A DNA stretch of 64,000 bases from Candidatus Latescibacterota bacterium (GTDB taxonomy: Bacteria > Latescibacterota > UBA2968 > GCA-2709665). Shown piece by piece: positions 43,769 to 63,180 of the stretch (position 1 is its first letter; every line of letters begins with the position of its first letter). Below the pieces are notes generated by a model. The model had not been told where the DNA came from, ran no database searches, and saw only the letters and a list, made by a program, of their open reading frames with translations. The stretch is from assembly GCA_965226795.1 (NCBI GenBank), contig CBDDDZ010000005.1:480001-544000 (forward strand), in the 5' to 3' direction. The position numbers and the translations under genes were made by a program.

Positions 43769-44379
43769 ATGAGCGACTGGCTCTAGAAATAGTACAAATT
43801 TTAGCAATATGCATAGTCTTGTTCCTATTAAAACAGTTTGGGACGCTCTACATAACTAAGAAGGGCGAAAACCTTGCGACGAAACAGGATATAAGGAAGA
43901 TTACCGACGAAATTGAAAAGGTCCGCTCGGTATACGCGAAGCATTTGGAAGACATATCACAGCAGAATTGTCTTATCTTGGAACAGGCAAAACAGAAACA
44001 CGAACTCAGAGTCGCCGCATTGGACCGCCGCCTCGAAGCACATCAACAGGCATTCACGCTGTGGCGGAGGCTTCTACACAAAGTTCACGATGAAGAGATT
44101 GGTAAAATCGTTCTGGAATGTCAGGAATGGTGGGTGAAAAACTGCCTTTACTTGGATGCCGAATCAAGGGCTGCCTTTCGGGACGCGTACCATGCAGCAT
44201 TCTTGCATCGGGATCTTGTCGATGGATATCGGGAAAATCCAGAAGGTAGTGAGAAAATCATAGAGAACTTCAAGGTAATCACCGATGCAGGTGAGCAGCT
44301 CGTGGAGGCTGCGGAACTTCCGAGTCTGGGCGAGAAAGAGTATAAGCCCATCGATCCACCAGAATCGGTCGAGGATTAG
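43769..44379 (+). pseudogene. Hypothetical N-anchored protein with an apparent 2-nt frameshift just after the start
   Basis: SD AGGAGG + ATG AGC GAC TGG, then CTCTAGAA; the long frame (LEIVQILAICIVLFLL...KGENLATKQDI) is offset by 2 nt. Confidence 0.5.
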
Positions 44380-44877
44380 CCGAAGGAAACTGCACCAAGA
44401 ACCTTTGAGGATGAGAATCATGGAGAAAAAGAACAAGCTTGAGTTTTCGTCAATTCGAATCCCTAAATCATTGAATGAAGCAGTTATGGGTGCTGCGGAA
44501 TTGACTGAACAGAGTGTCGACGATTTCGTCTAAGAAAACCTTGCGACCGTGACCTGGCAAACCGAGTTTTAATGATGGTCAACAAACTTGCCACCAAACC
44601 CCAAACGGTGGCGCCCCGATACACGGTCACAGACTCATTGAACTCGTCGTCCAGGGCGTCGAATTCCGGGATGGAGACGTCAAAGCCGCCGCTTAATCCA
44701 TCAGGATGCGCTCGCCGCCATCCACAACATTTGACAATATCTCTCCCAGGCTATTTCTCCGCTCCTTCAAAAAGCCACTTTGTCTCAGCTAATGATCTCC
44801 CATATGCGGCCATTGCAGGATCGGTTTAATCGGGCTACTTGGTTGCGATTGAGGTTTCGGACTTCCGAATAACGTTT

Positions 44878-45099
44878 CTACCTTCTGGCAGTCTCCGCTT
44901 CCGACAACAGTAGGGTCTTGCCGGCACGAAAATCTTCACTCCTTTGCAACGCATCCGCCAACTCAATCTTCTCCTCATCGTCAAGACCCGGAAGTTCATC
45001 TAAGGCAAGATACTCCGGGTGTTCCCTCACTGTCTTATCTATCAACGCTTCAGCCCACTTAAGCCTGCCCACTTCATCCCCTTCATCATATTTTTCCAT
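44878..45099 (-). CDS. Small acidic hypothetical protein, antitoxin-like
   Basis: SD GGAGG; C-terminal ALQRSEDFRAGKT resembles type II antitoxin tails. Confidence 0.45.
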   Translation of the reverse strand: MEKYDEGDEVGRLKWAEALIDKTVREHPEYLALDELPGLDDEEKIELADALQRSEDFRAGKTLLLSEAETARR

Positions 45100-45258
45100 G
45101 TCCTCCCCCCTTATAACATGTCGGCTTGACAAAATCCCCCGTTTTTTTTCAGGAAAGATGAAAAAAGATATTGACAGCGGCCTCCGATACATTAGATTTC
45201 TATTGTATCAGGTACGTATCCATTATGCATCAAAAACGCAATTTATCTACTAAAGTTT

Positions 45259-45454
45259 GAGCCCACTCCGAAAAGTGAGATTCCCGTAATTTTCCTCCAA
45301 TTTGGATCATGAACGGCCATTCTTCAATATGACCTATATCCGCGTAAATCATTATATATCATAGTTATATAACAAGTATAATTTCGGTTTACTTCTGAAC
45401 AGAACACCATTTTTGACTTTGTCGGAGTCGATTTTGACTTTTCGGAGGGGACTC
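45259..45454. mobile_element. 196-bp MITE with 18-bp TIRs and AAGTTT target duplication
   Basis: Left GAGCCCACTCCGAAAAGT; right end reverse-complements to GAGTCCCCTCCGAAAAGT; AAGTTT at 45253-45258 and 45455-45460. Confidence 0.85.
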
Positions 45455-45464
45455 AAGTTTTAAA

Positions 45465-45941
45465 ATGCGTATCCTGGGTTGGATTCTTGAAATATTGGAT
45501 ACCGTCGCAAAATGGCTTTCATCAAAAAGCGAAAAAGATGGAAAAAGAGAATCAATTTGGAGCGTAACTGAAAGTGACAGAAGACGATTTGCTTACTTGT
45601 CTGTAATCCCATTCTTCGTGTCATTAATCGTTGTATCCTACCATGAAATATGGTACACGGATTTCAGCCCTCTCCATAAAACGTCCCACATAATACAAAA
45701 TGTAGGAACCATCGGCGTCTCTTGTGTGACACTCGCCTTTTTCTTATTGGAAGGAGTGGAAGTTATGAGCCTCCTATTAGGGAATGCCAGAGAACTGGTT
45801 GAACGCCGAAAAACAGCCCGCGATGAAGCAGCCGTTCAGAAATTCGTTACAAAAATCGAAGAAAAATTCGGAGCAGAAAAAACAGTATCCATTGAAGATA
45901 TTAAAAGCGTTGCACAAGACACAACCGCAAAAAACAAATAA
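45465..45941 (+). CDS. AT-rich hypothetical two-TM protein
   Basis: 158-aa ORF with two hydrophobic segments in an AT-rich tract. Confidence 0.6.
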   Translation: MRILGWILEILDTVAKWLSSKSEKDGKRESIWSVTESDRRRFAYLSVIPFFVSLIVVSYHEIWYTDFSPLHKTSHIIQNVGTIGVSCVTLAFFLLEGVEVMSLLLGNARELVERRKTARDEAAVQKFVTKIEEKFGAEKTVSIEDIKSVAQDTTAKNK

Positions 45942-46089
45942 ACCCCTTTATCCCACCATCCGGCCAACACCCGCCTGCCAGTATTACAATTGGCAGGCTT
46001 TGTTCTGCCAACCACTTAATCCCTGTTAATTGCCTGGTTAACCAATCGCCCCGTCACAACATGAGACAAGGAAGCGACGTAAGTACTTT

Positions 46090-46200
46090 GCCGCTACCAA
46101 TTTGCGATATCTACCAGACAACGGATTCCGCGACGGTGGTTGTGTATTTTGTAGGGACGGTTTCGCGAACCGCCCTGCGTTCGTATGATGGATGTGGACC
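46090..46200. repeat. Junction repeat R, copy 2
   Basis: CAATTTGCGATA, GTAGGGACGGTTTCGCGAACCGCCCTGCG, GTATGATGGATGTGGAC. Confidence 0.65.
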
Positions 46201-46403
46201 TTGATTCGCCTTTCCGAAAACCTATCAAGCACCGAGGTTTGAATTCATGCGCGGTTTTTTTACCCATCTGCAGAAAACCAATTGCACACTATTCTTGGGA
46301 ATGATATATTCGCTATGAAGGCGGGAAGCAGTCGCCAGCGTCCGGCCTGTTTCTTTGGGTAAGGTCGATTCTGAGACGTCTAATGATTCTCCAGGAGGAT
46401 CCA

Positions 46404-46589
46404 ATGTCTGCAGGTAATTTAACTGCCGTGATCAGAAAAGAGGATGATTTGTACGTTGCGGATTGCCCGGCATTGGGTACAGTAAGTCAGGGCACTTCCC
46501 CGAAGGAAGCGTTGGAAAACCTCAAGGAGGCCACAACACTCTATCTTGAAGAAACTGGAGCTACGGTGACGGAGTTCAATATTGCCTAA
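46404..46589 (+). CDS. hicB: HicB-like antitoxin
   Basis: Near-identical to 38622-38798; overlaps hicA. Confidence 0.85.
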   Translation: MSAGNLTAVIRKEDDLYVADCPALGTVSQGTSPKEALENLKEATTLYLEETGATVTEFNIA

Positions 46590-46812
46590 ATTGCCGTCGG
46601 ACAAATCGGGCAGTGAAGTAATAGCAGCACTCCAAAAACCCGGGTTCAGCTTTGTGAGACAAACGGGAAGCCATGTAGTGCTTAAACGCTTCGATCCAAT
46701 CAGAAGCAGAGTGGCGGTTGTTCCTGTGCATAGACGATTGGCGCGCGGAACAATACGAGGTATACTCACACAGGCGGGAATAGACAGGGACGAGTTTCTA
46801 CGTGTAATTTAG
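46582..46812 (+). CDS. hicA: HicA-family toxin
   Basis: GFSFVRQTGSHVVL, VPVH-x2-LARGTIRGILTQAG. Confidence 0.88.
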   Translation: MPKLPSDKSGSEVIAALQKPGFSFVRQTGSHVVLKRFDPIRSRVAVVPVHRRLARGTIRGILTQAGIDRDEFLRVI

Positions 46813-46974
46813 GGATTGAATAATGCTCCATGGGCAGGGTTTGTCGGCAAAAGCGACAGACCCTTTCGTATGTCGTAGGAGATCCGTATGCGGTCTATAT
46901 GTACGCTTGAGCAAAGCCTTGCGATTGGCGTCGATTCGTCAGAAGACCGCAGCCACTACGCTTCATAAAGACCC

Positions 46975-47090
46975 GGGTCACTGTTGCAAATTGCGACACC
47001 TAACAAATACAGGGTACGATGGCGGTGGTAGGGTTATTTGAAGGGGGCGGTTTCGTGAACTGGCCTGCGACGGTGTGATGGATGTGGACG
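46975..47090. repeat. Junction repeat R, copy 3
   Basis: CTGTTGCAAATTGCGACACC, TACGATGGCGGT, GGGGCGGTTTCGTGAACTGGCCTGCG, GATGGATGTGGAC. Confidence 0.7.
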
Positions 47091-47111
47091 GGGTCTCCCT
47101 TATCGTACGCA

Positions 47112-47493
47112 AGATGAGTGGACCCTCCCGTTCGTACAGTGGCGAAACAGAACGCAGGGACTTCTCTCCTTCTGGTGGAACGGAACGCGACGGCGGCAAG
47201 GCCGGGCGTGTCTCAGGATTACTCAGCTGCCCCGCCTGACGGTCCTGGACCCGCGCGCCCGCAGCGAGGATCAGCTATCTCAGGCCACGTCCATCTTTGA
47301 GCGATTCAGGGAAAGGGAATTCCTGCCGGCCAACGAGGCATATCGGGATGAGGTACGCCAGGATCTTGACCGCGCGGTACTCACGGAACTGTTGCTCCTT
47401 CCCGACGGGGTTCTCGAAGCGCTCGCCATCTTGCGCGATCAATGGTGCGCTGAGCCAAGCGTCCGTGGTGGTAAGAAGACAAGGATTGTCTAA
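47112..47493 (+). pseudogene. 3' fragment of a paralogue of the type IIG R-M gene
   Basis: Aligns to about 43088-43465; translates LPRLTVLDPR...EFLPANEAYRD...QWCAEPSVRGGKKTRIV*. Confidence 0.85.
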
Positions 47494-47509
47494 CGCGCCA
47501 CCCACGCAA

Positions 47510-47809
47510 GAATGCATACAGACTTGGGTAAGATTCAGGCGCCGTGTCGTACATCTTTCGGGACAGCTTTTCTTCCCGCACGAACGATTCGCCGTCGGGG
47601 CGGAAGCGGTTTGGGTAGAGTTGGGGCCGTTTGCCGAAGACGAGAAGGAAGACATGATCCACGAACTGAATGCCGAGGTCACACGTCTTTTGTGCTTGAA
47701 CGAGCCGCAACTCATGCGGATTCTTGAGAACATTGACGAACGATCGCGCCATCAAGAGCACCTGGACGGAGTGCTGCGCCGTTCCCGTACATGGAGGAGT
47801 CCCCATTGA
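47510..47809 (+). pseudogene. Probable 3' fragment of a different large R-M-type gene
   Basis: ERFAVGAEAVWVELGPFAEDEKEDMIHELNAEVTRLLCLNEPQL resembles the ELDA-x-VA-x-LYGL C-termini of type IIG/Eco57I-like enzymes. Confidence 0.45.
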
Positions 47810-48993
47810 CACTGCGCGTCAACGTCAAACCGGAGTTATTTCGCTTGGCGCGGGAGCGGGCGGGCATTCACGTGGATGCTCTGGTGAAGCGATTTCCCAG
47901 ATATCTCGAGTGGGAATGCGGTGAAAAACAGCCAACGCTCAAGCAACTGGAGAAACTTGCCCGTGTCACCCATGCGCCGATCGGTTCTTGCTTTCTTTCT
48001 TTCGGAGCCGCTTGATGAACCGGTCCCGATTCCTGACATGCGAACGATCGGCAGTGAGATCGTGGGACGGCCCAGTGTCGAACTTCTGGATACCGTCTAT
48101 CTCTGCTTACAACGTCAGGATTGGTACCGGGACTATGCACGCATCGAGGGAGAGGATCCGCTACGGTTCGTTGGGTCCGAGACGACTCGGAGCGACGTTG
48201 AGTCCACTGCGGAAAGGATTAGAGGCGAACTGGGTTTCGACGTCAATGAGCGACGCAAACTGCGTACCTGGACCGAGGCGCTAAGGCGCTTTATTGAGCA
48301 GGCTGATTCACTGGGTATATTGGTGATGACAAGCGGGATTGTTGGCAATAATACCAACCGCAGGATGTACCCCGAAGAGTTTCGGGGCTTCGCCTTGAGC
48401 GACGATCTTGCACCGCTTGTATTCATTAACGGGGCCGACACCAGGGCGGCTCAAATGTTCACGATGGCTCACGAACTCGCACACATCTGGCTCGGCAAGT
48501 CGGCGCTCTCCGACGTTGGTGCTGTTTCCGTGCCGTCCCACGACGTAGTGGGTTGGTGCAACCGGGTCGCTGCCGAGCTTCTCGTGCCATTTGCGTCATT
48601 ACTTGAGAGTTACCGTGAGAGCGAGGAACTTCCAATTCAACTCAACCGCCTTGCACGAGAATACAAAGTCAGCACGTTGGTCGTGCTGCGGCGGCTTCAC
48701 GACGTCGGTGTACTCGACCGTGAGGAACTCAGGTCCGCCTACGGCCGGGAACTGGATCGCATAAGGAACATTGAACCGACAAGCGGCGGCAGTTTCCATC
48801 CAACGCTCAGGGCGCGCGTAGGCCGGCGGTTTGGCGGTGCCATTGTGACCAGCACATTAGGAGGACGGACTTCTTTTTCCGAGTCCTTCCGCCTTCTCGG
48901 TAAAAAAAAGTGTCGACGTTGCGGGCCTTCGCGGCAAGCCTGGAAGTGGGACCATCGAGCACGTTTTTGCGTCTCTTTGAAACGAGGTACTGA
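47807..48993 (+). pseudogene. XRE-HTH + ImmA/IrrE metalloendopeptidase with two frameshifts
   Basis: WECGEKQPTLKQLEKLA (HTH), EEFRGFAL, FTMAHELAHIWLG (HExxH); frameshifts at (CTTT)3 near 47990-48002 and A8 at 48902-48909. Confidence 0.8.
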
Positions 48994-48998
48994 ACGAG

Positions 48999-50999
48999 AT
49001 GGCTACCCGAAAGAAAAAGACCCAACCGGAAAAGCCCACTGATCCCTTTTCGGAACTCACGTGGGAAGACCTGGAGGAATGGGCCGGCAATCGCATCGTT
49101 GCCCGGGGTCGGTCCTATGCGAGAAAAGGGGCTGTTCAGGAATTGAAACGCGCCGAAGACGGGGCCCTGATAGCCTGGGTGCTGGGTAGCCATCGCTACG
49201 CCACCCGGGTGAGCGTTGAGGGAAGAAAGGACCTGATATCCGGATGTACCTGTCCCTACTGGACGACGTGCAAACACGGGGTGGCTGTCGTGGTGGAATA
49301 TCTGGAAATGGCAAAGACCGGAACTGCCGTCGGCCGGGTTGAGGCAGACGACCCGCGGCTTGAGGAGTTGGATGCAATCACGGAAAACTCCGAGGAGCCG
49401 CTGGAATTCGACGTGGAGGAACTGGAAGAGGAGCCCGTCGAGACACTTTCGGATAACAATGGGTCAGGGCAATCCCGGCACTCTTCTTTGCGCGCGCACC
49501 TGCAAGAGCATACCAGGGCCGAACTTGTAGAGCTGCTGCTGGAACTCGCCGAAACGCACGACGAAGTGCGCCGGTCGCTTGAGGACAGGCGCAACCTGAC
49601 CTCGGGACAGACCCACAAAGTGCTGAAAAAGATACACTCCGAGATCGCAGCCCTGGAAGAACCCGTATGGGAAACTGATGATTACGGGTACCATCCGGCC
49701 AGTACAGAGCGCCTCAAAGCGATGCTCCAGGCGCTGGTGGCGGCCGGACAGTTTGACGCGGCGGTGCGACTGGGACCGGAACTACTGGCCGCGGGTTGCC
49801 GCGCGATGGAGTACGACCAGGAGGGAGAGTCAAGCGAAGCAATCGGCGCCTGCCTCGACGTTCTTTTCCAGGCCCTGGATACGACTTCCATGTCGCCCGC
49901 GAACCGGATCGAATGGGTTCTGGACATGGCCCTGGCCGACGAGTACGAACTTTGCTGCCACGGATTGGAAAACTTCAAGGATAAAGACTATGCGAAAAAC
50001 GATTGGTCTGCGGTGTGCGACCGCTTGGCGCAACGTCTCGAGGCCAATAGACCCCCGCGCGGAGGTGATGGACTTTCGACTGACTACAAACGGGACCGAA
50101 TTGTCGACTGGCTCATTCGCGCCATGGAAGTGGCTGGCAGGCAGAAAGAAATCGTCCCTCTGTGCAAGCGCGAAGCCCCCATCACCCTATCATTCAATCG
50201 CCTGGTGGACCGCCTGATGGCCGAGTGCAAGTGGGACGAGGCGAGGCACTGGTGCAGGCAGGGGCTTGAGGCGATTTCCGACCGGTATCCAGGCCTGCAC
50301 GCCGCGCTTCGAGAGCAACTGCAGACCATCAACCAGCGCAGCGGCAATCCACTCGCCGGGTTGGCCCTGCAGGCGGAGGAATTTTTCGCAAGACCCGGAT
50401 CAGACGATTTCCAGGCATTGTGCAAAGCTGCCCGCGAACTGGGCGTTGAGGAGGGCGTCGAGGCGTGGGGGCGGTACTATCTGCGAACCGGCCGGCGACC
50501 TCGAATCGGCAGGAAACGCGAGAGCGACCCGGAGATGGATTGGCCCCTGCCGGTCCCCGAAGTCGAAATGCCGCCGCCACGCGGCGACAATGAGGCGCCT
50601 ATGGTGGACGTGCTGGTCCAACTGGCCATTGCGGAGAAGAAGCCGAACGAGGTTGTGAAGTGGTACGACCATTCCCGTCGAACCAAAGCTGCGCACTGGA
50701 TGCGTGACATTTCCCTCGACGACGAGGTGGCCGACGCCATCGCGTCGACGCATCCCGACCGGGCGGTGGCAATTTGGAGAGAACTGGCGGAGCAGCTGAT
50801 CGCCCGGGTAAAGCCGAGGGGATACCAGGAGGCCGTTCCCTATCTGCGCCAGGTCAGAGATGTACTCATCCGGTCAGGTCGCGAGGGGGAATGGGAAGAG
50901 TACCTGGCCGCCTTGAGACAGCAGAACAAGCGCAGGCCCCGATGCCTGGAGGAACTGGATCGGCTGGAGGGTGGCCGCCGGCGCATTGTCGACGGCTGA
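48999..50999 (+). CDS. SWIM zinc finger family protein
   Basis: ARGRSY, GSHRY, CTCPYWTTCKH; helical C-terminus ending NKRRPRCLEELDRL. Confidence 0.88.
   Translation: MATRKKKTQPEKPTDPFSELTWEDLEEWAGNRIVARGRSYARKGAVQELKRAEDGALIAWVLGSHRYATRVSVEGRKDLISGCTCPYWTTCKHGVAVVVEYLEMAKTGTAVGRVEADDPRLEELDAITENSEEPLEFDVEELEEEPVETLSDNNGSGQSRHSSLRAHLQEHTRAELVELLLELAETHDEVRRSLEDRRNLTSGQTHKVLKKIHSEIAALEEPVWETDDYGYHPASTERLKAMLQALVAAGQFDAAVRLGPELLAAGCRAMEYDQEGESSEAIGACLDVLFQALDTTSMSPANRIEWVLDMALADEYELCCHGLENFKDKDYAKNDWSAVCDRLAQRLEANRPPRGGDGLSTDYKRDRIVDWLIRAMEVAGRQKEIVPLCKREAPITLSFNRLVDRLMAECKWDEARHWCRQGLEAISDRYPGLHAALREQLQTINQRSGNPLAGLALQAEEFFARPGSDDFQALCKAARELGVEEGVEAWGRYYLRTGRRPRIGRKRESDPEMDWPLPVPEVEMPPPRGDNEAPMVDVLVQLAIAEKKPNEVVKWYDHSRRTKAAHWMRDISLDDEVADAIASTHPDRAVAIWRELAEQLIARVKPRGYQEAVPYLRQVRDVLIRSGREGEWEEYLAALRQQNKRRPRCLEELDRLEGGRRRIVDG
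50743..50995. repeat. 253-bp direct repeat, copy A (3' end of the SWIM gene)
   Basis: Matches 53490-53742 with three mismatches by eye. Confidence 0.95.
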
Positions 51000-51002
51000 G
51001 CC

Positions 51003-53173: not shown

Positions 53174-53489
53174 GGAGGTTGCCGGGGGCCTGGTGCCGCC
53201 TGGCGGATTGGTTCGCCCGATAGAAGGGTGATCGGCAGGCGGAAGGGTGTCCCGAAGCCAGCCTCTCCCGCTGAGTGAGCTCAAGGCAGCGTCGCTTACC
53301 TGGGAACGCGGTTCGGAAAGCAAATAGGCGGGAAGTGGTCCTGGAGGGGCCGCGGATTCGTCCCTCCCTTTCGCCGAACCAGTCGCCACACCGGGGGACC
53401 GCGACTCACTCCAGGCAGTTGAACATCGTCGTGATGCCCCGAACATCCCGGGAAAGCGCAACAGCTCCGGGTCCTGAGCGCGGGCTGGA

Positions 53490-53746
53490 CGTCGACGCAT
53501 CCCGACCGGGCGGTGGTAATTTGGAGAGAACTGGCGGAGCAGCTGATCGCCCGGGTAAAGCCGAGGGGATACCAGGAGGCCGTTCCCTATCTGCGCCAGG
53601 TCAGAGATGTACTCATCCGGTCAGGTCGCGAGGGGGAATGGGAAGAGTACCTGGCCGCCTTGAGACAGCAGAACAAGCGCAGGCCCCGATGCCTGGAGGA
53701 ACTGGATCGGCTGGAGGGTGGTCGCCGGCGGATTGTCGACGGATAA
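53490..53746 (+). pseudogene. 253-bp direct repeat, copy B (orphan 3' end of the SWIM gene)
   Basis: Encodes IWRELAEQLIARVKPRGYQEA...RRIVDG*, as in the SWIM protein. Confidence 0.92.
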
Positions 53747-53805
53747 GCCAGGTCTGCCGGGTCGATAATCCGGTATCGAAGAAAACGGAAAAACGGAGGT
53801 GAACC

Positions 53806-54754: not shown

Positions 54755-55414
54755 ATGAGGGGCTTGAACGAAGATCTGAATACGAGGCGGTCGCGGACGC
54801 GGGAGATTATCAAAAAACTGAACGGCATTTACCCCGGCGTCGAGTGTTCGCTGACCTATGGGAATCCGCTTCAGTTGTTAATCGCCACGATTCTTTCGGC
54901 GCAGTGTACGGACGAACGGGTCAATATGGTGACGCCCGGCCTTTTCGAGCGGTGTCCGACGGCCGCGGATTTTGCCGACGCGCCGCTGGAGGAATTGGAA
55001 GACCTGATCCGTTCGACGGGGTTCTTTCGCAACAAAGCGCGAAACATCCAGGGCTGCTGCCAGGCGCTGGTCGATATCCACGGCGGCGAGGTACCGCGTT
55101 CCATGGATGAACTGGTGGCGTTGGACGGCGTTGGAAGAAAGACAGCCAATGTCGTTCTGGGCAACGCGTTCGGCATCGCCGCAGGCGTAGTGGTGGATAC
55201 GCACGTGCGCCGGATTTCCAATCGATTGGGTCTGACCCGGCGCCAGGACCCGGTCAAAATCGAGCAGGATCTGATCGCGCTGGTACCGAGGAAAGACTGG
55301 GTGGATTTTCCGCATCTGTTCATTCATCACGGACGGGCGATATGCAGCGCCAGGAAGCCGGATTGTGAGGGCTGCGGCGTGGGCGCGCTGTGCCCGTCAC
55401 AAGGAAGGGCTTGA
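54755..55414 (+). CDS. nth: Endonuclease III
   Basis: LIATILSAQCTDERVN, LDGVGRKTANVV, VDTHV, C-x6-C-x2-C-x5-C. Confidence 0.95.
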   Translation: MRGLNEDLNTRRSRTREIIKKLNGIYPGVECSLTYGNPLQLLIATILSAQCTDERVNMVTPGLFERCPTAADFADAPLEELEDLIRSTGFFRNKARNIQGCCQALVDIHGGEVPRSMDELVALDGVGRKTANVVLGNAFGIAAGVVVDTHVRRISNRLGLTRRQDPVKIEQDLIALVPRKDWVDFPHLFIHHGRAICSARKPDCEGCGVGALCPSQGRA

Positions 55415-55728
55415 CAATTTCCCTTCGCGAAATTTCCATTACAGGCACATGTTGCGCGATCAAAATCGGATAGCTCCCCGGTGTTTTTGTGGGCGGTGAA
55501 TTTTCTGCAAATTTTTAAAAATTGGGTCTTGACTTTCGACATTCGGAACGATAAATTTTGTCCGAAAAATTCGACCCGTACGGTTTGGATCGGATCCGGT
55601 TCCGATGAGAAAAGTTGCGGCGATTCGGGTGCAACTTCGGTAGAACTGTAGCAACATCGTTACGGATTGTCGATATCGGGTGCAGTTTACGGGAATCACA
55701 TGTGGCGCCGGGGAGGCAAAAAGTGAAC

Positions 55729-56163
55729 ATGACTAAGAAACTGACTCCTGAAAGGCTGGCGTTTTACAGGAAGCTGCTGCTGGATAGAAAAAAAGACCTG
55801 CTGAAGCACACCCTCCTGGAAGATGCAGACATCAACGAACTGAGGAGAGACCACTCCGCGGATCCGTTCGATATGGCCGGCAACGCGACTTCGCTGGAGT
55901 TGATGGCGGCGCTGGGAAATAACGAAAGGCGGGAGCTTGCAGAGATTGATCATGCCCTGGGCAAGATCGAAAATGGCACGTACGGTATCTGCGAGGTGTC
56001 CGGGGAGTTGATCGGCGAACTCCGGCTGGAAGCCATCCCCACGGCGCGGTATACCATGCAGGTTCAGCAGGAACGGGAACGGAATCCTCAAATCATCGAC
56101 CGTCCAAAGCGGAGAGTAATTTCCGCCGAGGACCTGCCGATGAGCAGCGACGACGATTCATAA
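55729..56163 (+). CDS. TraR/DksA-family regulator
   Basis: DPFDMA (DxxDxA), EIDHALGKIENGTYGICEVSGELIGELRLEAIPTARYT. Confidence 0.88.
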   Translation: MTKKLTPERLAFYRKLLLDRKKDLLKHTLLEDADINELRRDHSADPFDMAGNATSLELMAALGNNERRELAEIDHALGKIENGTYGICEVSGELIGELRLEAIPTARYTMQVQQERERNPQIIDRPKRRVISAEDLPMSSDDDS

Positions 56164-56182
56164 GGCGGGGCGAAATGAAATC

Positions 56183-56219
56183 AAAAAAGGGCGATTCGGG
56201 ATCGGGTCGCCTTTTTTTG
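56183..56219. terminator. Bidirectional intrinsic terminator
   Basis: AAAAAAGGGCGATTCG-loop-CGGGTCGCCTTTTTTT. Confidence 0.8.
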
Positions 56220-56309
56220 TGGCAGGTACCATTAAGGGTGGTAGCATCCCGGCAACGTTGCGCACGCATTAAACGCCACCACGATTAACTTCAACTCAGG
56301 TTGACATCC

Positions 56310-57272
56310 ATGTCTTACACCAGGCAAATCGTGCGTCAACTGGACATACTCAGAGAGCTCATGTCGCGGACTTATGGAGCGACAATCCAGGATCTCGTAG
56401 GAAAATTCGGGGTAACACGGCGGACAATAGAGCGAGATCTTGACAACCTGGGCGACGCTGGCTTCACGATATATCCGGAAAAGCAGGGGCGCCAGAACCA
56501 GTGGAAACTCATTCACGACAAGGAGATGCCGCCCCTGAACTTCCCTGTAGGCGAACTCATCACCCTGACCTATATCGGCGGCATCCTGGAAGGAACACCA
56601 TTCAAAGACGAGTTTCAGAAAACCCTGAACAGGATCCGGACCACGCTGCCGGATAAGATGCGCGCATTCCTGGAACAGGCGGCCTATCATCCGCATATTC
56701 GAGGGCAGAAGGCGCAGGTCTCCCCGCAGGTATTCGCAATGGCGCATCGCGCAATCACGGAACGACGAATTTGCAACGTAACCTACCGCGCGATCACCAC
56801 CGGACAAAGCAAGACGTATTCGATCATACCTTTCAGGTTCTTGTACCATTATGATGGTGTATATCTGCTTTGCCGCAATCCGAACTATGACAATTTGCTG
56901 ACCCTGGCAGCGGAGCGGATCCAGGAACTCGAGGTCACATCCCAGTCTTTCGAGGATTCCATCGATTCCAATGTTGAAGAGCAACTTCACCAGGCCTTCG
57001 GTGTAGTACTTGAATCTCCCATGGCGGTTCAAGTTCGCTTCTCGGCATCCCAGGCACCTTATATCAAACAACGGATATGGCATCCCTCACAGGAGATCAA
57101 GGAATTGGATGATGGCGCCATTGTCCTTTCTTTCCGAGCCGGCGGGATGTACGAAATCAAGTCGTGGATTCTGAGCCATGGCGCAAGCGCCGAAGTCCTG
57201 GCGCCAGCGTCCCTGCGGGAGGAAATAATCGAAGAAATCGAGAAAAACCTGAGTTCGTATAAAAAAACCTGA
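56310..57272 (+). CDS. WYL-domain transcriptional regulator (wHTH-WYL-WCX; DriD/PafB-type)
   Basis: N-terminal GVTRRTIERDL wHTH; WYL region VYLLCR..LTLAAERI; WCX IWHPSQ...EIKSWILSHGASAEVLAP. Confidence 0.92.
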   Translation: MSYTRQIVRQLDILRELMSRTYGATIQDLVGKFGVTRRTIERDLDNLGDAGFTIYPEKQGRQNQWKLIHDKEMPPLNFPVGELITLTYIGGILEGTPFKDEFQKTLNRIRTTLPDKMRAFLEQAAYHPHIRGQKAQVSPQVFAMAHRAITERRICNVTYRAITTGQSKTYSIIPFRFLYHYDGVYLLCRNPNYDNLLTLAAERIQELEVTSQSFEDSIDSNVEEQLHQAFGVVLESPMAVQVRFSASQAPYIKQRIWHPSQEIKELDDGAIVLSFRAGGMYEIKSWILSHGASAEVLAPASLREEIIEEIEKNLSSYKKT

Positions 57273-57276
57273 CTAC

Positions 57277-57311
57277 ATACGACTTAGTTCGTCGTATATG
57301 CTGTTTACTTT
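57277..57311 (+). promoter_or_regulatory. Putative WYL operator and promoter: ATACGAC-N7-GTCGTAT plus -10 TACTTT
   Basis: Perfect 7-bp inverted repeat 57277-57283 / 57291-57297; CGTCGT-N10-TA-N3-T spacing to 57306-57311. Confidence 0.7.
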
Positions 57312-57313
57312 GT

Positions 57314-57342
57314 GGCGTGTTCAATTGAGAACGCGCCTTTTT
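57314..57342 (+). terminator. Intrinsic terminator hairpin between the WYL and ATPase genes
   Basis: GGCGTGTTC-AATTGA-GAACGCGCC-TTTTT. Confidence 0.65.
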
Positions 57343-57415
57343 CCTGTACCGCTCCCCCGGTACGCGCGGAGAGGACTCACGTCGAGGTTCGTTGAAGTTT
57401 AAACACCGGGAGAAA

Positions 57416-59539
57416 ATGCAGACCATGCGCAGACGCGATTTGCTCGGTTTGTTTTCTGATAGTGGGTGTATGTCGCCGACGAAGGATTTCAGCCTCCACC
57501 TTGCGCGCACCTATCTGCTGAACGTTCTGCGTGCCGCACAGCTCAACAGGACCATTCGGACAGGGCTTTTGAAATGGATGGCGGGTAATGAGGACCGGCT
57601 CAAGTCGCTCGGCGTTCATCGCCTTCGGCGTAAGGTAGACACTCCAAAAGGCAACCTTCGATTCATCGAGCATGCGGTTCAGTGCCTTGAGCGTAAGACC
57701 CGCCGCCCACCGCCGCGCTCCCCCGACGCAGAGGCCACGTACCTGGTCGTCCAGCGTTTCTCGCTTGGTCCTGCGGCTGCAGGGTTGCTTGAATTCGTAC
57801 ACAGTTGCAAATACAACGACTTCCTTCGCACCATTTTGCACAATATCGAGTTCCGATGCTCAAATCCTGCGGAGCAATTGGCACTCTGTCTTAATCGTCC
57901 TCGCCGCGACGTAGAAGTCGGACTGCGGGAACTCGCCGAATCCGGCATCGCAGATTGTAAGACCGTCGCTCGGTTGGACGAATATAACACTGCCGACGAC
58001 CTCGTCCACGACAGGTTTTGGGAAGTGTGGCATCCGCCTGTGAGAGACATGGACGAGTTGACGGCGCGATTGGTTGGCGAACCCTGGGCTGCCCGGTTGC
58101 GCCTCGACGACTTTGCGCACCTCTTGGAACGCGACGATATTCGGCGCACGTTGAACGCAGCAAAGCGCGAGCGTTGCGCCGGCGCGCCGGCACCTGGTGT
58201 CAACATCCTGCTGGTGGGCAGGGCTGGCACTGGAAAAACCGAATTCGCCAAAACCATCGCGGAATCGTGTGGCATGACGCTCTTCTCTGTTGGCACAGAC
58301 GAGATTGATGACGAGGAATCCTGCAATACCGCCCACGACCGGCGCTCGGATTACCGCAATGAGTTGCGGATGGCGCAGACACTGCTTCGATCTATGCCGG
58401 AGGCCGCAATTCTGTGCGACGAGGCCGAGGACGCGCTGGAGTCCAGCAGCGGTTCACGCCTCGCCAATCACCGGCTGATTGAGGAAAATCCCGTACCGGT
58501 GATTTACACCGCAAACAGTCTGAAAGACCTGGACGAGAGCATGCTGCGGCGATTCACCCACGTCGTCAGATTCACGGCCCACGGCCCGAAGCGCCAGACC
58601 GCCATTTTGAGGCGAATGCTCGCCGAGAGTGGCATCGAGGGTATCGACGCCTCCGCGTGCGCCAGACGACTCGTGGACGAACTCGAGTGTACACCGGGCA
58701 TCCTCGCAAAGGCCATCGAAACGACCCGCCTCGTCAGTGGCGCGGAAGACGATCTCTACCGCTATTGCGAAGGCCTCGAACGTACCATCGCCACGCAATA
58801 CGCCCGACCGAGGCTGGGACCGCCGGTCCGAGGCGAACTCCCGTGGGAGGCGTTTTCACATCTCGAAAAGGACGCCGCAGACGTCAGGGAAACCCTCGTT
58901 TCAGTCAAGGACAGCGAGAAGAAGGGGATCAACATCCTCCTGTACGGACCGCCGGGAACCGGCAAGACCGAATTTGCCCGCACCCTGTGCGCTGACGTTG
59001 GCGCGCGACTCTATGCCGTTGGCGATAACGAGGTGGGACCCCAGTCGCGGATTTCCGTATCGCGTACGGAAGCATTGGACTTTGCACTCGAAGCCCTCGC
59101 TAACGAACGTGGCGCAGTGGTCTTCTTCGACGAAATGGAGGACTTCGACCGCGTGGAGAAACATTGGCTTAATCGGGTCCTCGAAGAGAATCCTGTGCCG
59201 ATCATCTGGGCGTGTAACTCCATTGACTACTACCGGATGTTTCAGCCGTTTTTCATCGACCGGATAATGCACGCGATCGAGTTTCGCCACATGTCCGTCG
59301 GGGCGAGGAGGCGCGTGTTCACAGGTATTCTTAGCAAGAAGCAAATTCCGGAGGCCGAAGCGTGCAGACTTGCCGTGGATCTGGCGCACGACCGGAAAGT
59401 GACGCCGAGGCAGGTGGCCATGGCTGCCGGTCAAGCGGGAATGGTCAGCGGAAATGCGGAGACCATACGGCGCAACATCGCACAGAAGGCGAAACTGCGC
59501 CACGGGATTCGCTTGCCGGAAATCAGACCGATCGCGTAG
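57416..59539 (+). CDS. AAA+ ATPase, N-terminal part with two tandem D1-type modules, ending at an in-frame TAG
   Basis: GVNILLVGRAGTGKTEFA..ILCDEAED and GINILLYGPPGTGKTEFA..VFFDEMED; SD GGGAGA before ATG 57416. Confidence 0.85.
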   Translation: MQTMRRRDLLGLFSDSGCMSPTKDFSLHLARTYLLNVLRAAQLNRTIRTGLLKWMAGNEDRLKSLGVHRLRRKVDTPKGNLRFIEHAVQCLERKTRRPPPRSPDAEATYLVVQRFSLGPAAAGLLEFVHSCKYNDFLRTILHNIEFRCSNPAEQLALCLNRPRRDVEVGLRELAESGIADCKTVARLDEYNTADDLVHDRFWEVWHPPVRDMDELTARLVGEPWAARLRLDDFAHLLERDDIRRTLNAAKRERCAGAPAPGVNILLVGRAGTGKTEFAKTIAESCGMTLFSVGTDEIDDEESCNTAHDRRSDYRNELRMAQTLLRSMPEAAILCDEAEDALESSSGSRLANHRLIEENPVPVIYTANSLKDLDESMLRRFTHVVRFTAHGPKRQTAILRRMLAESGIEGIDASACARRLVDELECTPGILAKAIETTRLVSGAEDDLYRYCEGLERTIATQYARPRLGPPVRGELPWEAFSHLEKDAADVRETLVSVKDSEKKGINILLYGPPGTGKTEFARTLCADVGARLYAVGDNEVGPQSRISVSRTEALDFALEALANERGAVVFFDEMEDFDRVEKHWLNRVLEENPVPIIWACNSIDYYRMFQPFFIDRIMHAIEFRHMSVGARRRVFTGILSKKQIPEAEACRLAVDLAHDRKVTPRQVAMAAGQAGMVSGNAETIRRNIAQKAKLRHGIRLPEIRPIA

Positions 59540-60211
59540 TACGACCCGGCCCTTGTATGCGCCGACGTGAATCTGGAGGATTTGACCGACCGGATTGTCT
59601 CCTTGGCCGCCCGCCGATTCGCGCTGTGCCTCTACGGGCCCCCTGGAACCGGCAAGACGGCTTACGTGGGCTACATTGCCGAACGGATGGGGATGGATAT
59701 CCTGCCTAAAAGGGCTTCCGATCTCCTGAGTCCCTGGGTTGGACAAACCGAGCAGAAAATGGCAGCGGCTTTTGCCGAAGCGCTCGAGACCGGCTCGTTC
59801 CTGGTATTCGACGAGGTCGATTCCCTCCTGATGGACCGGCAATATGCCGTTCGCTCGTGGGAAACGAGCATGGTCAACGAATTGCTCAGCCAGATGGAGC
59901 GGCACCCACTTCCTTTCGCGTGTACCACCAACCGGTGGGAGGCGCTCGACCCGGCGGCAACTCGGCGTTTCCTGTTTCGCGTTGAGTTCTTCTTTATGGA
60001 TCGGCCACGAATCGAACGGGCATTCAGGTTCTTCTATGGTTGCGAAGCGCCGCAGGAGACACTCGCATTGGACAAACTCACGCCAGCGGATTTCGCAAAC
60101 GTGCGCGAACGTGCGAAGATCCTGAATTTTCTCAAGGACCCCGAACGTATCGGCCGTGCACTCGCCGAGGAGTGCCGCGCAAAGCCGGGCGGCGGGCAAC
60201 TCGGGTTCTGA
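59540..60211 (+). CDS. Third AAA+ module (D2-type), in frame after the TAG
   Basis: YDPALVCADVNL..LCLYGPPGTGKT..LVFDEVDSLL..LDPAATRRF; C-terminal LGF. Confidence 0.8.
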   Translation, partial: YDPALVCADVNLEDLTDRIVSLAARRFALCLYGPPGTGKTAYVGYIAERMGMDILPKRASDLLSPWVGQTEQKMAAAFAEALETGSFLVFDEVDSLLMDRQYAVRSWETSMVNELLSQMERHPLPFACTTNRWEALDPAATRRFLFRVEFFFMDRPRIERAFRFFYGCEAPQETLALDKLTPADFANVRERAKILNFLKDPERIGRALAEECRAKPGGGQLGF

Positions 60212-60284
60212 AGGAGCGGTGCTGACAGGCTAGGTCCCGCGGAACGCCGAAATCAGATCCAAACGCACAAAGGAGGTTGACGAG

Positions 60285-60914
60285 ATGTTCTTGTCGAAGT
60301 GGTTGGTATCGTTGTTGGCATTGAGTATCCTGACGAATCCGATATATGCAGAGGAACCAGAAAGAATCTCAAAGCTGTCAAACAGCCTCGAACTCGTATT
60401 GGGTGGAGGAACTCACAAATACGCCGAAGAGATCGACCCTCATCCCGGCATGGCTTCACTTGGAACATCACTCTTCGGATACCACGCGACGGATCGTTCC
60501 ATGATAGGCTTTCGATACTCGCTAAGTCAATACACGACCCAAAGGGTTGTTTCGATCACCGGACCTTCTGGCGATACCTTGTCACTTTCGTCCGGAGAGA
60601 AGGAAAGCTGGAAGGTATTTTCAGCCCTCGTTCTATACAGGCGATCCTTCAGAATCCGGAAACCTGTCCAACCGTATTTCGATATCGGACTCGGCGCCGC
60701 AAGCAACTACGCCGGATATGAAGGAGGAAGAAAATTCGCCAGTGCGATTGCGGTTGGCGCGAATTGGAGATTCACGAGCCACTGGGTCGTCGCGATTGAA
60801 GCGCGAGGCATTGCAATAAACACGTCGCTGCAAGGACATACGGCAGGGCCGGTTCCCGACGGGCCACTTACCGTCGTGGAGTCGACGCTGGGAATCGGTT
60901 GGACCCTGAAATAG
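60285..60914 (+). CDS. Outer-membrane beta-barrel protein
   Basis: Signal peptide, VQPYFDIGLG, alternating beta strands, terminal LGIGWTLK; SD AGGAGG. Confidence 0.7.
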   Translation: MFLSKWLVSLLALSILTNPIYAEEPERISKLSNSLELVLGGGTHKYAEEIDPHPGMASLGTSLFGYHATDRSMIGFRYSLSQYTTQRVVSITGPSGDTLSLSSGEKESWKVFSALVLYRRSFRIRKPVQPYFDIGLGAASNYAGYEGGRKFASAIAVGANWRFTSHWVVAIEARGIAINTSLQGHTAGPVPDGPLTVVESTLGIGWTLK

Positions 60915-61097
60915 TGTTCCGTCCCAGAAACATGTCACCATTCATCCGCCGATTCATCCCGTCTCGCTGCGTTGCCATCGCTCGCCGACCTTGCGCAGGT
61001 CGCCTCGCTCAGACGCCGGTTCCTGAGCCTGTCGAAGGATGCCAGCCGGGCGACTCGTCGACCGAATTTCGGCAATCTATTTCCGGGACAGAACACT
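60913..61097. mobile_element. MITE family S, copy 5 (most complete; carries a CCTGAGCCTGTCGAAGG repeat)
   Basis: TIRs AGTGTTCCGTCCCAGAAA / TTTCCGGGACAGAACACT; left end overlaps the TAG stop of the upstream gene. Confidence 0.8.
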
Positions 61098-61252
61098 GGC
61101 CGGATAGTGGAACGAAAAAATCGCCTGCGAAACGATTTGAGATTTTCTGGTGTGAAATTAGGGTGATTGCCGAGCGGATCGTGAGAACTGGCCGAACGAG
61201 TAGAACGTAAATCGATAATCCGTCCTTCGAACATAAAAACGGGAGATTTAAC

Positions 61253-62401
61253 ATGCACCCGGTTGATCTGCAGGAGAAACTGGAACAATTGGAGAGGCGA
61301 CAGTGTTGGCACAAGCGGATGATTGCGGGTCTGATTGTAGCATTCCTATTCACTGCCTCGCCGACGTTGACAAAGGCGCCCAAGTGGCTTGAAGGTGCAT
61401 TCTTGCCTGGACGCCTCGAATCCAACCCGACAAAGGCCGATTTCAGTAAAGCGCTATCAAACATGAACAGAATGGTTTCGAATCCGTCCGCGCTGCTTTC
61501 GAATTCGACACAGATGCTATCAAATGCTGCAGAGACGGAAAGGTTGAACAAGACGGCGCTTGCCAGAGAAGCGCAGATTGTCCAGGCAACGGAGTTTCAA
61601 ATCGTGAATGATCGTGGACGCGTCGTTGCGGCTATAGGCGCCTCGGATACCGGAGATGGCACGGTGGTATTGTGGAACCGCGAAGGAAAGGTGATATCCG
61701 TGTTAGGCGCGGACACACGCGGCAATGGCGCGCTGGAAATTGTGAACTCGTTGGAGCGGACGACAGTATCGATGGGCGCCGATGAGTCAGAACATGCCAA
61801 TGGTTGGATCAGTGTGGGCAGCGCCTCACAGGCGAGTATCCAATCGCTGGTGCTCGAGTCAGGCGTCGTCGCGATAGGCATCGTCAACAGCGACGGCAAT
61901 GTGGCAGCCCTGTTGGGTTCAAGTGAAAATGGCAATGGTGTGTTCAAGATATTAAACCGTTCTGGCAATATCGTTATTGACGCAGGAGCCACTGAGGTTG
62001 GCCACGGTGGCTTGGACATTTTCAACGCTTCAGGAGGGATAGCCGCCGCCGTGGGACATGTGAAATCAGAGTATATACACGGTGGGGTGTTGGGAGTTTT
62101 CAATGCTGATGGTTTGCCTGTCGCGTCTATGCAATCGGACGAAAGAGGCAAAGGCGAACTGGTCATAGATCGCGGCAGATTTGCAGCATATGTTGATGAT
62201 AACGGCAACGGGATTGTGGAAACCCGGGAGGAAAGTGGACTCTTGCGGTGGTCGTCTGAAATGGTGCCAGGCGGCAATGGCGGTACATCGAGCGGTTTAA
62301 TGGGTGACTTCGACGGGGATGGAGACGTCGATTTTACCGATTTCCTGACATTCGCAGGCAATTTCGGCAAGACGATTGACGATCAAACTGACATGAATTG
62401 A
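61253..62401 (+). CDS. Exported protein with about 23-aa beta repeats and a C-terminal EF-hand/dockerin-like tail
   Basis: One N-terminal TM helix; repeats hxhxNxxGxxhxxhGxxxxGxG; GDFDGDGDVDFTDFLTFAGNFGK. Confidence 0.7.
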   Translation: MHPVDLQEKLEQLERRQCWHKRMIAGLIVAFLFTASPTLTKAPKWLEGAFLPGRLESNPTKADFSKALSNMNRMVSNPSALLSNSTQMLSNAAETERLNKTALAREAQIVQATEFQIVNDRGRVVAAIGASDTGDGTVVLWNREGKVISVLGADTRGNGALEIVNSLERTTVSMGADESEHANGWISVGSASQASIQSLVLESGVVAIGIVNSDGNVAALLGSSENGNGVFKILNRSGNIVIDAGATEVGHGGLDIFNASGGIAAAVGHVKSEYIHGGVLGVFNADGLPVASMQSDERGKGELVIDRGRFAAYVDDNGNGIVETREESGLLRWSSEMVPGGNGGTSSGLMGDFDGDGDVDFTDFLTFAGNFGKTIDDQTDMN

Positions 62402-62532: not shown

Positions 62533-63180
62533 GTGGATTCTTTGGAACTGTCAATTGCTCGGCTGATCCGCAAGCGCACGCAGGATCTTGGTATCACCCG
62601 CGGTGAACTTGCCCGCCGTATGGGATATACCAATGTCACCACGGGATGTCGACGATTAGACCAGATATGCGCCGGAGACGTTAAAATGGCGGAGAATCTG
62701 CGGGTCGAGCTTGCCCGGGGCCTCGACGTGGATGCCGAAGTGATCAATGATTCTATCGAGTACACCCGCGCCAAACAGCTTTCGGCGGAAGACAAGGCCT
62801 ATCGTGAATCTTTTAAGCCACATGCGGTGATACTCACAGAGTATAAGATACCGACACAGATCACATTTTACGCAATGACCGGGGGATCCCGTCATCGGAT
62901 TATTCCGTTCAAGGAGGGGTCAACCCCTGAAACGTACGCGGCACAGGCGCGAGAGGCCCTTCCGAACGTGGTTCGCTTTCTCGGGCGTCCAATTGGATAT
63001 GTGGTAAACTACACTCCAGATTTCGCCTTAAAGTTTAACAAGGAGGGCAGATTGATAGGAAGGCTCGACCGCACGTTTCGCGTGGGGCAATCAGGCGTCG
63101 TTATCGGGGGCAAGGAAGTCGGCGAAGGGGTCTGGTCCACCCTTTTGGGTACCGCATCGGTTTCTCCTTCGCCCAAATAA
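62533..63180 (+). CDS. Hypothetical protein with N-terminal XRE-like HTH
   Basis: LIRKRTQDLGITRGELARRMGY. Confidence 0.65.
   Translation: MDSLELSIARLIRKRTQDLGITRGELARRMGYTNVTTGCRRLDQICAGDVKMAENLRVELARGLDVDAEVINDSIEYTRAKQLSAEDKAYRESFKPHAVILTEYKIPTQITFYAMTGGSRHRIIPFKEGSTPETYAAQAREALPNVVRFLGRPIGYVVNYTPDFALKFNKEGRLIGRLDRTFRVGQSGVVIGGKEVGEGVWSTLLGTASVSPSPK

Follow-up and report, generated by a model that had tools for sequence, protein, structure and literature searches.

A conserved, probable DriD-type switch ahead of a three-module AAA+ ATPase in Candidatus Latescibacterota, with a possible link to ClpP

In a 64,000-nucleotide stretch of a Candidatus Latescibacterota genome (assembly GCA_965226795.1, contig CBDDDZ010000005.1, positions 480,001 to 544,000; hereafter the window, G000:C5:480001-544000 of its own genome G000, 5,410,777 bp), a gene for a WYL-type transcription regulator is followed by a gene for an ATPase with three AAA+ modules, and the DNA between the two carries an operator box identical to the consensus of Caulobacter crescentus DriD. 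We conclude that a real, conserved DriD-type switch very probably lies ahead of the ATPase gene. We further propose, more guardedly and at slightly less than an even balance of belief, that the regulator is a DriD-type activator which acts on the box behind its own gene and switches on the ATPase as an on-demand unfoldase for ClpP, with the copy in this strain broken. Coordinates below are those of the window, and the parts of the module lie on the forward (+) strand except for the strandless box.

The regulator gene (56310 to 57272, 320 residues) ends with a TGA, and 4 nt behind it stands the palindrome ATACGAC-ttagttc-GTCGTAT (57277 to 57297). A first-pass annotation of the window had noticed this palindrome and equated it with the DriD consensus; the published consensus is indeed ATACGAC(X)7GTCGTAT (PMC10853764). 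The exact box occurs once in the window and once in the whole genome, with no one-mismatch and 18 two-mismatch copies, so that the ATPase is the sole evident target, as had been suggested. A search for box-N8-TAnnnT across the genome gave 3 matches versus 1 to 6 with other spacers, and a genome-wide DriD regulon was rejected because boxes are not above chance. The box sits over an empty -35 slot (57283 to 57288, CTTAGT), and 8 nt 3' of it we predict, from conservation rather than mapping, a -10 element TACTTT (57306 to 57311), with a predicted transcription start near 57318. Covariation and folding (-15.8 kcal/mol, z -4.6) identify a terminator hairpin with U tract at 57314 to 57342. Across 12 loci, 95.5% of the cells in this hairpin are paired and 5 of 11 pairs show changes on both sides, a covariation reached by 1 of 500 shuffles, which is not a probability since the sequences are related. 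In folding computations, transcripts that begin at 57318 or 57320 lack the hairpin. We infer that the terminator ends the regulator mRNA and that the ATPase gene is reached only by a transcript from the activated promoter.

The complete layout, i.e. regulator stop-N4-box-N8-TAnnnT-hairpin-U tract, is present in 15/15 related genomes with the ATPase (self included), and a TTGACA-like hexamer occupies the -35 slot in none of these loci. By contrast, the layout is absent within 1.5 kb of the 4 other ATPase matches in the same genomes (3 three-module paralogues and 1 two-module protein). The box is thus kept together with both genes, in line with its earlier designation as the regulator's own operator. 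Its geometry is that of DriD, which covers the -35 position with constant spacing to the -10 element (PMC13004042). In the "optimised -35" probe of that study, TTGACA falls within the box, with 17 nt between it and CAATCT; the latter lies 8 nt past the box by hand count, equal to the spacing at the window locus. An alternative reading of PMC9186387, with the box ending at -36, was replaced by these cryo-EM promoter sequences. A PafBC-type sigma adaptation was likewise rejected; the half-site spacing fits, yet the promoter is better accounted for by a complete palindrome with DriD geometry. Mycobacterial PafBC is likewise a WYL activator whose promoters lack a -35 element, the right half-box and the -10 element have the same spacing (tGTCgg-N10-tA-N3-T), and the Pup-proteasome adds a conceptual tie between a WYL switch and ATP-dependent proteolysis. 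It differs from the present module, in which one regulator, probably a homodimer, faces a complete palindrome and the predicted partner is ClpP instead of the 20S proteasome.

For the regulator itself, Pfam HTH_11, WYL and WCX all score above cut-off, in agreement with the winged helix-turn-helix (wHTH)-WYL-WCX assignment made at first pass, and DriD is the sole PDB family match (E 2.7e-12). The protein is 24% identical to the product of a DriD-type partner gene at another ATPase locus (L065), i.e. DriD-like but distant. Its recognition helix R38-T-I-E41-R42 (56421 to 56435) aligns with R37/E40/R41 of DriD, which read the bases (PMC10853764). The alignment, GVTRRTIER here and GVGRRTAER in DriD, agrees with the helices given in the annotation (RRTIER and RRTAER), and R38, T39 and R42 are unchanged in 20/20 aligned WYL proteins. 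A sister family has xRTIQR or xRTIHR as its helix and GTCA as its right half-site, a pairing consistent with position 1 being read by E40 in DriD, although this is one evolutionary event and carries no statistic; the box variant of this family is close to the Acinetobacter DdaA box CGWCA-N5-TGWCG. The likeness to DriD thus covers domain order, the R-x-x-E-R helix, the exact operator with its AT-rich centre, and a box that covers an empty -35 slot and ends 8 nt short of the -10 element. Unlike DriD, which controls a recA/didA regulon, the regulator here is distant in sequence, has most residues for single-stranded DNA (ssDNA) contact replaced, and has one private target, and its operator lies downstream of the regulator gene with an overlapping terminator. 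No ATPase is named as a target in the available text of the DriD and DdaA papers, and the word "ATPase" occurs 0 times in PMC9186387, PMC12392091 and PMC13010146. As a separate observation, a perfect TTGACA is found at 56301 to 56306, 3 nt 5' of the regulator start codon.

The second reading frame (57425 to 60211) holds Walker A and B motifs of three modules across an in-frame TAG, as had been described. An N-terminal helical and winged-helix domain (57425 to 58096) precedes module D1 (58097 to 58819; GRAGTGKT, LCDE, an RR finger and no aromatic pore loop), module D2 (58820 to 59536; GPPGTGKT, FFDE, DR), both with approximate boundaries, and module D3 (59540 to 60208; pore loop W-V-G), which is Cdc48/VAT-like by sequence and fold and contains a possible restart GTG at 59567. 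The homologue search gave 447 matches; among the 120 listed plus the window protein (P0001), i.e. 121 proteins, 110 have three Walker A motifs. Of these 110, 107 (D1), 108 (D2) and 110 (D3) retain the Walker B DE, and 106 the aromatic pore loop of D3. D3 has classic-clade Walker A/B, sensor 1, arginine-finger and pore-loop motifs, as in Cdc48/p97/VAT, Rix7/NVL and Drg1, and we take the ATPase to belong to the classic clade and not the HCLR/Clp clade. Among solved structures, VAT, Cdc48/p97 and Rix7 come closest, with VAT as the best PDB sequence match (E 2e-36) and Cdc48/p97 as the best fold matches. Unlike Cdc48/p97/VAT, the protein has three modules, an all-helical/winged-helix N domain in place of a Cdc48-type one, and no aromatic pore loop in D1 and D2. 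The full model has a predicted local distance difference test (pLDDT) score of 81 and the N domain alone 91. PF22977, a winged-helix variant, is found in 24/74 family members and was not detected in this copy; a Foldseek search with the N domain gave no match at E 0.001, and the best VIA-align Z of 5.6 is uninformative for a helical domain, with winged-helix chains at Z ≤5.0.

No PADLOC or NCBIfam system fits this composition, which the first-pass annotation had likewise failed to recognise. Only partial IetA-type matches far below cut-off were obtained (IteA 59.8 bits versus 510); D3 resembles IetA over approximately 140 residues, but ietAS pairs its IetA ATPase with an S8 protease, none of which was seen alongside this multi-module ATPase. 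Clp/Hsp100 family profiles are not reached either (ClpX 27 bits versus 359, ClpA 26 versus 993). Pvc15/Afp15 share an N domain with tandem modules (10.1101/2023.08.15.553202), but no injection-system genes were seen near the ATPase. We found no published description of this WYL-ATPase pair or of a three-module bacterial AAA protein, although Table S4 of PMC10853764, on promoters of DriD homologues, could list this ATPase as a neighbour. For 32 loci hand-picked out of 80, with 75 modules, a tree places D1 and D2 in one clade each (100/98 each) and as sisters with moderate support (87/77). Together they branch from within the first modules of the two-module family, and D3 forms one clade (100/99) inside the last modules of that family. 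A single tandem duplication is the simplest reading of this tree, and the three-module form probably arose by tandem duplication of module 1 in a widespread two-module family. The 17 three-module loci come from metagenome-assembled genomes of Ca. Latescibacterota, "Gemmatimonadota" and Acidobacteriota.

The link to ClpP comes from the C-terminus, where the frame ends in LGF and a stop (60200 to 60211). A loosely defined xGF lies in the last 110 residues of 109/110 three-module proteins among the matches listed, 89 of them terminal, and of 80/84 locus proteins, and in the last 60 residues of 70/73 proteins held out from pattern derivation. G and F are unchanged in 72/72 aligned last modules (picked among motif carriers), and the tail is much better conserved than the flanking linker. 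In the window's genome, 14 of 4,941 long frames end in xGF, none of these with a Walker A motif. ClpX binds ClpP through an (I/L/V)G(F/L) motif, for which ClpP has pockets lined by L49, Y63, F83 and L115 (10.1101/638692; PMC13243586), the site of IGF loops and of the acyldepsipeptide ADEP (10.1101/638692). The genome has two ClpP genes (C3:92650-93261 and C3:418931-419446), and we predicted a complex of D3 with three copies of the first, from the tig-clpP-clpX operon. The score was 0.61 versus 0.00 for the best of three controls, the runs share at least 71% of contacts, and the partner pLDDT is at least 75. The score mark is reached by 116/157 solved complexes and 2/215 mismatched pairs, counts that are only roughly valid for this job. 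Confident contacts involve only D3 tail residues 219 to 223, with L49, Y63, Y83, L115, I29 and V91 of ClpP. As in ClpXP, ClpAP and ClpCP, the (I/L/V)GF is thus predicted to enter the pocket formed by L49, Y63, Y/F83 and L115, but the motif is a C-terminal tail here and an internal loop in ClpX/A/C, and the ATPase is not encoded with clpP. We found no published description of a C-terminal IGF partner of ClpP. Proteasome-type ATPases bind the proteasome via a C-terminal HbYX tail, in place of which this family has xGF. From the models, six xGF tails might plug into the ClpP pockets in the way ClpX IGF loops do, a possibility we consider serious while leaning marginally the other way; we are similarly reserved, just below the midpoint, about the ATPase acting as an inducible ClpP unfoldase.

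The TAG at 59537 to 59539, in the D2-D3 linker, is a real strain-level nonsense allele of this lineage. Contigs from sequencing run X1, possibly the source sample, carry it with 0 differences over 56000 to 59864, and so do those from run X2, a separate study, whose 3 differences all lie away from the stop. Among 11 cluster members, 3 stop at the same residue (at least 99.8% identity) and 3 full-length proteins at 94-95% have Gln, the residue of the closest intact relatives; 18/19 matches in relatives are free of internal stops. The shared stop in these contigs and cluster members rules out a sequencing or assembly error. Pyrrolysine recoding was also discarded, as neither PylS nor, among 50 tRNAs, one with a CUA anticodon was found (ARAGORN can miss tRNA-Pyl). 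The stop removes the last module and the tail, which makes the window copy a poor test subject, and the truncated 704-residue product would be unable to couple to ClpP. Decay occurs in relatives as well: in G007 the WYL gene is cut and fused to what is left of the ATPase, the ATPase of G034 lacks its first 498 residues, that of G040 is gone, and in G023 a different gene stands behind a degenerate box. At the latter locus (L124, G023:C2 from approximately 759900 downwards), a WYL gene with degenerate box and hairpin is followed by what looks like a gene for a Sel1-type repeat protein.

The ATPase is present in 15 and the WYL gene in 18 of 41 genomes (relatives and self). The module is not a one-off but a three-module offshoot of a widespread pairing of a DriD box with a two-module ATPase. 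Of 63 two-module genome loci, 60 have enough upstream DNA, and 42 of these show the pattern CGnC-N7-GnCR-N3-N8-YAnnnT near the start, compared with 0-7/60 for spacers of 3-7 and 9-15 and a background elsewhere of 0.02 per 610 nt; the pattern was derived from these 60 loci themselves. A WYL gene lies within 4 kb in 42/60 loci (counted by tblastn), and promoter and WYL gene are both present in 34. Most of these WYL genes have the DriD helix RRTAERMR and lie downstream of the ATPase. Judged by these comparisons, the WYL link predates the triplication. Neighbours vary and include PD-(D/E)XK and RecB-like nucleases, UvrD, ADP-ribosylglycohydrolase and integrase, with no fixed third gene in a neighbour scan of 65 hand-picked open reading frames of 149. 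On alphaproteobacterial plasmids, two-module loci (L119, L120, L122, L065) form ATPase-WYL-ADP-ribosylglycohydrolase-(HEPN)-PD-(D/E)XK-UvrD clusters. Mobile and viral records comprise 1 match to an INPHARED phage genome, 17 plasmid records, and strong matches at 2/13 viral-contig loci.

In the window, the gene order is sdr-nth-dksA, a strong terminator-like hairpin, the WYL gene, the DriD box and the ATPase gene. The hairpin with U tract behind dksA (56182 to 56219; -23.2 kcal/mol, z -3.7) forms the left edge of a variable island, and the module begins right after it, as the first-pass annotation had placed it. A comparable hairpin follows dksA in 5/5 same-genus genomes that lack the module, which have other genes downstream. 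After dksA, loci without the module (L136-L140) carry an opposite-strand gene that we take to be aldolase-like from its translation (3/5 clear, with a remnant in a fourth), and G013, also without it, has a presumably transposase-like gene, again by its translation. Within the sister family, 5 of the 7 loci checked (L124, L125, L131, L133, L134) have the WYL gene starting directly after tRNA-Leu(CAA), a site that differs from dksA. Downstream of the ATPase, 60285 to 62401 encodes an outer-membrane beta-barrel protein and a 382-residue protein with a terminal DFDGDGDVDF repeat. A 215-residue gene without Pfam match (62533 to 63180) lies 3' of the ATPase in 5/5 same-genus genomes with an intact module (64-84% identity) and may belong to the same island. 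An Rfam scan of 55000 to 61500 gave no match. Farther upstream, the 3' end of a 666-residue gene (48999 to 50999) is apparently duplicated (approximately 50770-51000 and 53400-53800, the latter ahead of the short-chain dehydrogenase gene), with identical shadow-frame peptides, and a low-GC stretch at 44000 to 49000 (0.41 at 45001 to 46000), adjoining an IrrE/M78 peptidase gene (47921 to 49042), is possibly another island. Three runs labelled sponge metagenome contain 50-56% of the window's words.

Bringing these data together, the switch would work as follows. Without signal, the promoter lacks a -35 element and the terminator would block read-through from the WYL gene, leaving the ATPase off. 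With signal, a liganded WYL dimer over the -35 slot would recruit RNA polymerase, and the transcript, beginning inside the left arm of the hairpin, would escape termination, so that the ATPase is made. This scheme we regard as highly likely. As for the signal, a nucleic-acid damage product is about as probable as some other ligand. By analogy with the Cdc48/VAT class, the ATPase would form stacked hexameric rings in which the aromatic pore loop of D3 threads the substrate, and the winged-helix N domain would select substrates, possibly DNA-bound proteins.

A number of observations weigh against the reading of the module as a damage-responsive switch for a ClpP unfoldase. Only approximately 4 of 10 DriD residues contacting ssDNA are kept in a pairwise alignment (Y159, T163, K168 and Y185 here). 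Of the contacts compared (Y168, S172, R176, R178, R189, Y192, R204, W206, R207 and Y240; PMC10853764), the regulator retains Y168, S172, Y192 and perhaps R176 and lacks R178, R189, R204, W206, R207 and Y240, as do its orthologues. DriD is impaired by R207A, Y240A and R176A-R178A (PMC10853764), and the equivalent arginines of PafB are essential (PMC11804915). In four aligned WYL partners with a DriD helix, most of that arginine pair is likewise missing, as is one of the two in DdaA. With most contacts replaced, the signal, on this comparison, may be other than the ssDNA of DriD, and sensing of DNA damage or ssDNA is a weaker part of the first-pass interpretation. The genome also has LexA (two matches over cut-off, C5:1384905 and C5:1638380), so damage control is independent of the module. 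RNA contigs are few and shallow, and the four short ones from run X16 were not used as evidence of expression. Nothing observed links the module to phage defence, likewise a weaker part of that interpretation. On the side of ClpP, complexes of this kind have already been solved (ClpX-IGF and ADEP), so the docking result shows likeness rather than binding, and any free xGF end might score. No clpP gene was found in the flanks of 166 loci searched, which means that the partner would have to be housekeeping ClpP.

The association with the WYL gene also has its limits. Three paralogous three-module copies in relatives have neither WYL gene nor box, and many ATPase homologues lack a WYL gene. The promoter is present in 0/10 loci of the mostly Acidobacteriota three-module branch (2 with short upstream DNA), of which 1/10 has a DriD-like gene, 3.6 kb off. 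Regulator and motif are conserved in the related genomes and in most two-module genome loci but not in this branch. In a held-out set of 82 metagenome and viral loci, of which 55 were usable (27 were short, duplicate or incomplete), the promoter matches only 13/55, with 7/55 for the next spacer. Among 40 held-out loci with at least 1.5 kb downstream, 10/10 promoter matches belong to the 17 that have a WYL gene and 0 to the 23 that lack one, suggesting that the promoter tracks the regulator even though many homologues have neither.

The same data can be read in other ways. Behind the WYL-activated promoter, the ATPase could act on its own as a Cdc48/VAT- or Pvc15-like remodeller, stripping or loading protein-DNA complexes such as those of the nucleases often encoded beside two-module relatives, with its tail binding another partner or packing on the ring. 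The winged-helix N domain would suit such a role, despite its weak fold matches (Z ≤5.0), and Pvc15 is also reported to be N-D1-D2 with a DNA-binding-like N domain (10.1101/2023.08.15.553202). Nuclease, ADP-ribosylglycohydrolase and UvrD neighbours, variable as they are, and the missing clpP neighbour point in the same direction. However, an xGF conserved far above the linker and docking, in the model, in a documented ClpP pocket speaks against this reading, and the three-module loci of this lineage have no consistent nuclease partner; we consider the remodeller unlikely, though it is the strongest of the alternatives. An anti-phage or anti-plasmid abortive module, in which the induced ATPase poisons the cell, e.g. 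by competing with ClpX/ClpC for ClpP or by ADEP-like opening, would account for the patchy presence (15/41 relatives), the island position after dksA or tRNA-Leu, the frequent decay (the window TAG, G007, G034, G040, G023), the tight double insulation and the partial likeness of D3 to IetA. However, patchiness also fits dispensability in a host-associated lineage, no PADLOC or NCBIfam system is reached, and the promoter has activator geometry, while WYL activators go with damage responses and repressors with immunity (PMC10853764). We judge the abortive module improbable.

Less probable again, by a clear step, are two further proposals. The regulator could be a repressor of the BrxR/CapW kind, blocking the -35 region until released by its ligand, as the box overlaps the -35 slot and the ligand pocket is unlike that of DriD. 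But 15/15 loci have no -35 consensus to occlude, and the rigid 8-nt spacing is that of DriD activation complexes, leaving this as the least likely option. Only slightly better placed, and still very unlikely, is a module that functions in this strain, via read-through or recoding of the TAG or as two proteins (704 residues, and 214 residues from the GTG at 59567). The stop does lie in a variable linker with D3 and tail intact beyond it, and the allele is common to three near-identical assemblies. The tRNA and PylS results given above speak against recoding, 18/19 matches in relatives have no internal stop, and no clear ribosome-binding site precedes 59567. We therefore retain the DriD-type activator with its ClpP-directed ATPase as the preferred reading.

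Taken as a whole, and with more doubt than confidence, we suggest that the module belongs to an undescribed, widespread arm of DriD-type regulation, in which a Cdc48-like ATPase with an IGF tail is made upon a signal and borrows housekeeping ClpP, giving an inducible third kind of Clp protease, three-ringed in this lineage and with a regulator ligand that may not be ssDNA. Repair and cell division supply known targets of DriD-type activators; the target indicated here, conserved in several phyla, would be an ATP-driven unfoldase. The promoter-inside-terminator layout makes for a compact and tight switch, and a three-ring classic AAA protein would be a new structural object. The two-module form occurs in culturable hosts (Amaricoccus, Roseicyclus, Leisingera and Fuscovulum), in which the ClpP-partner idea is testable. 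Docking via C-terminal tails is familiar from proteasome ATPases; if it is real here, ClpP would have a class of partners beyond ClpX/A/C that engages it via a C-terminal IGF tail, and inducible proteolysis would join an SOS-independent response.

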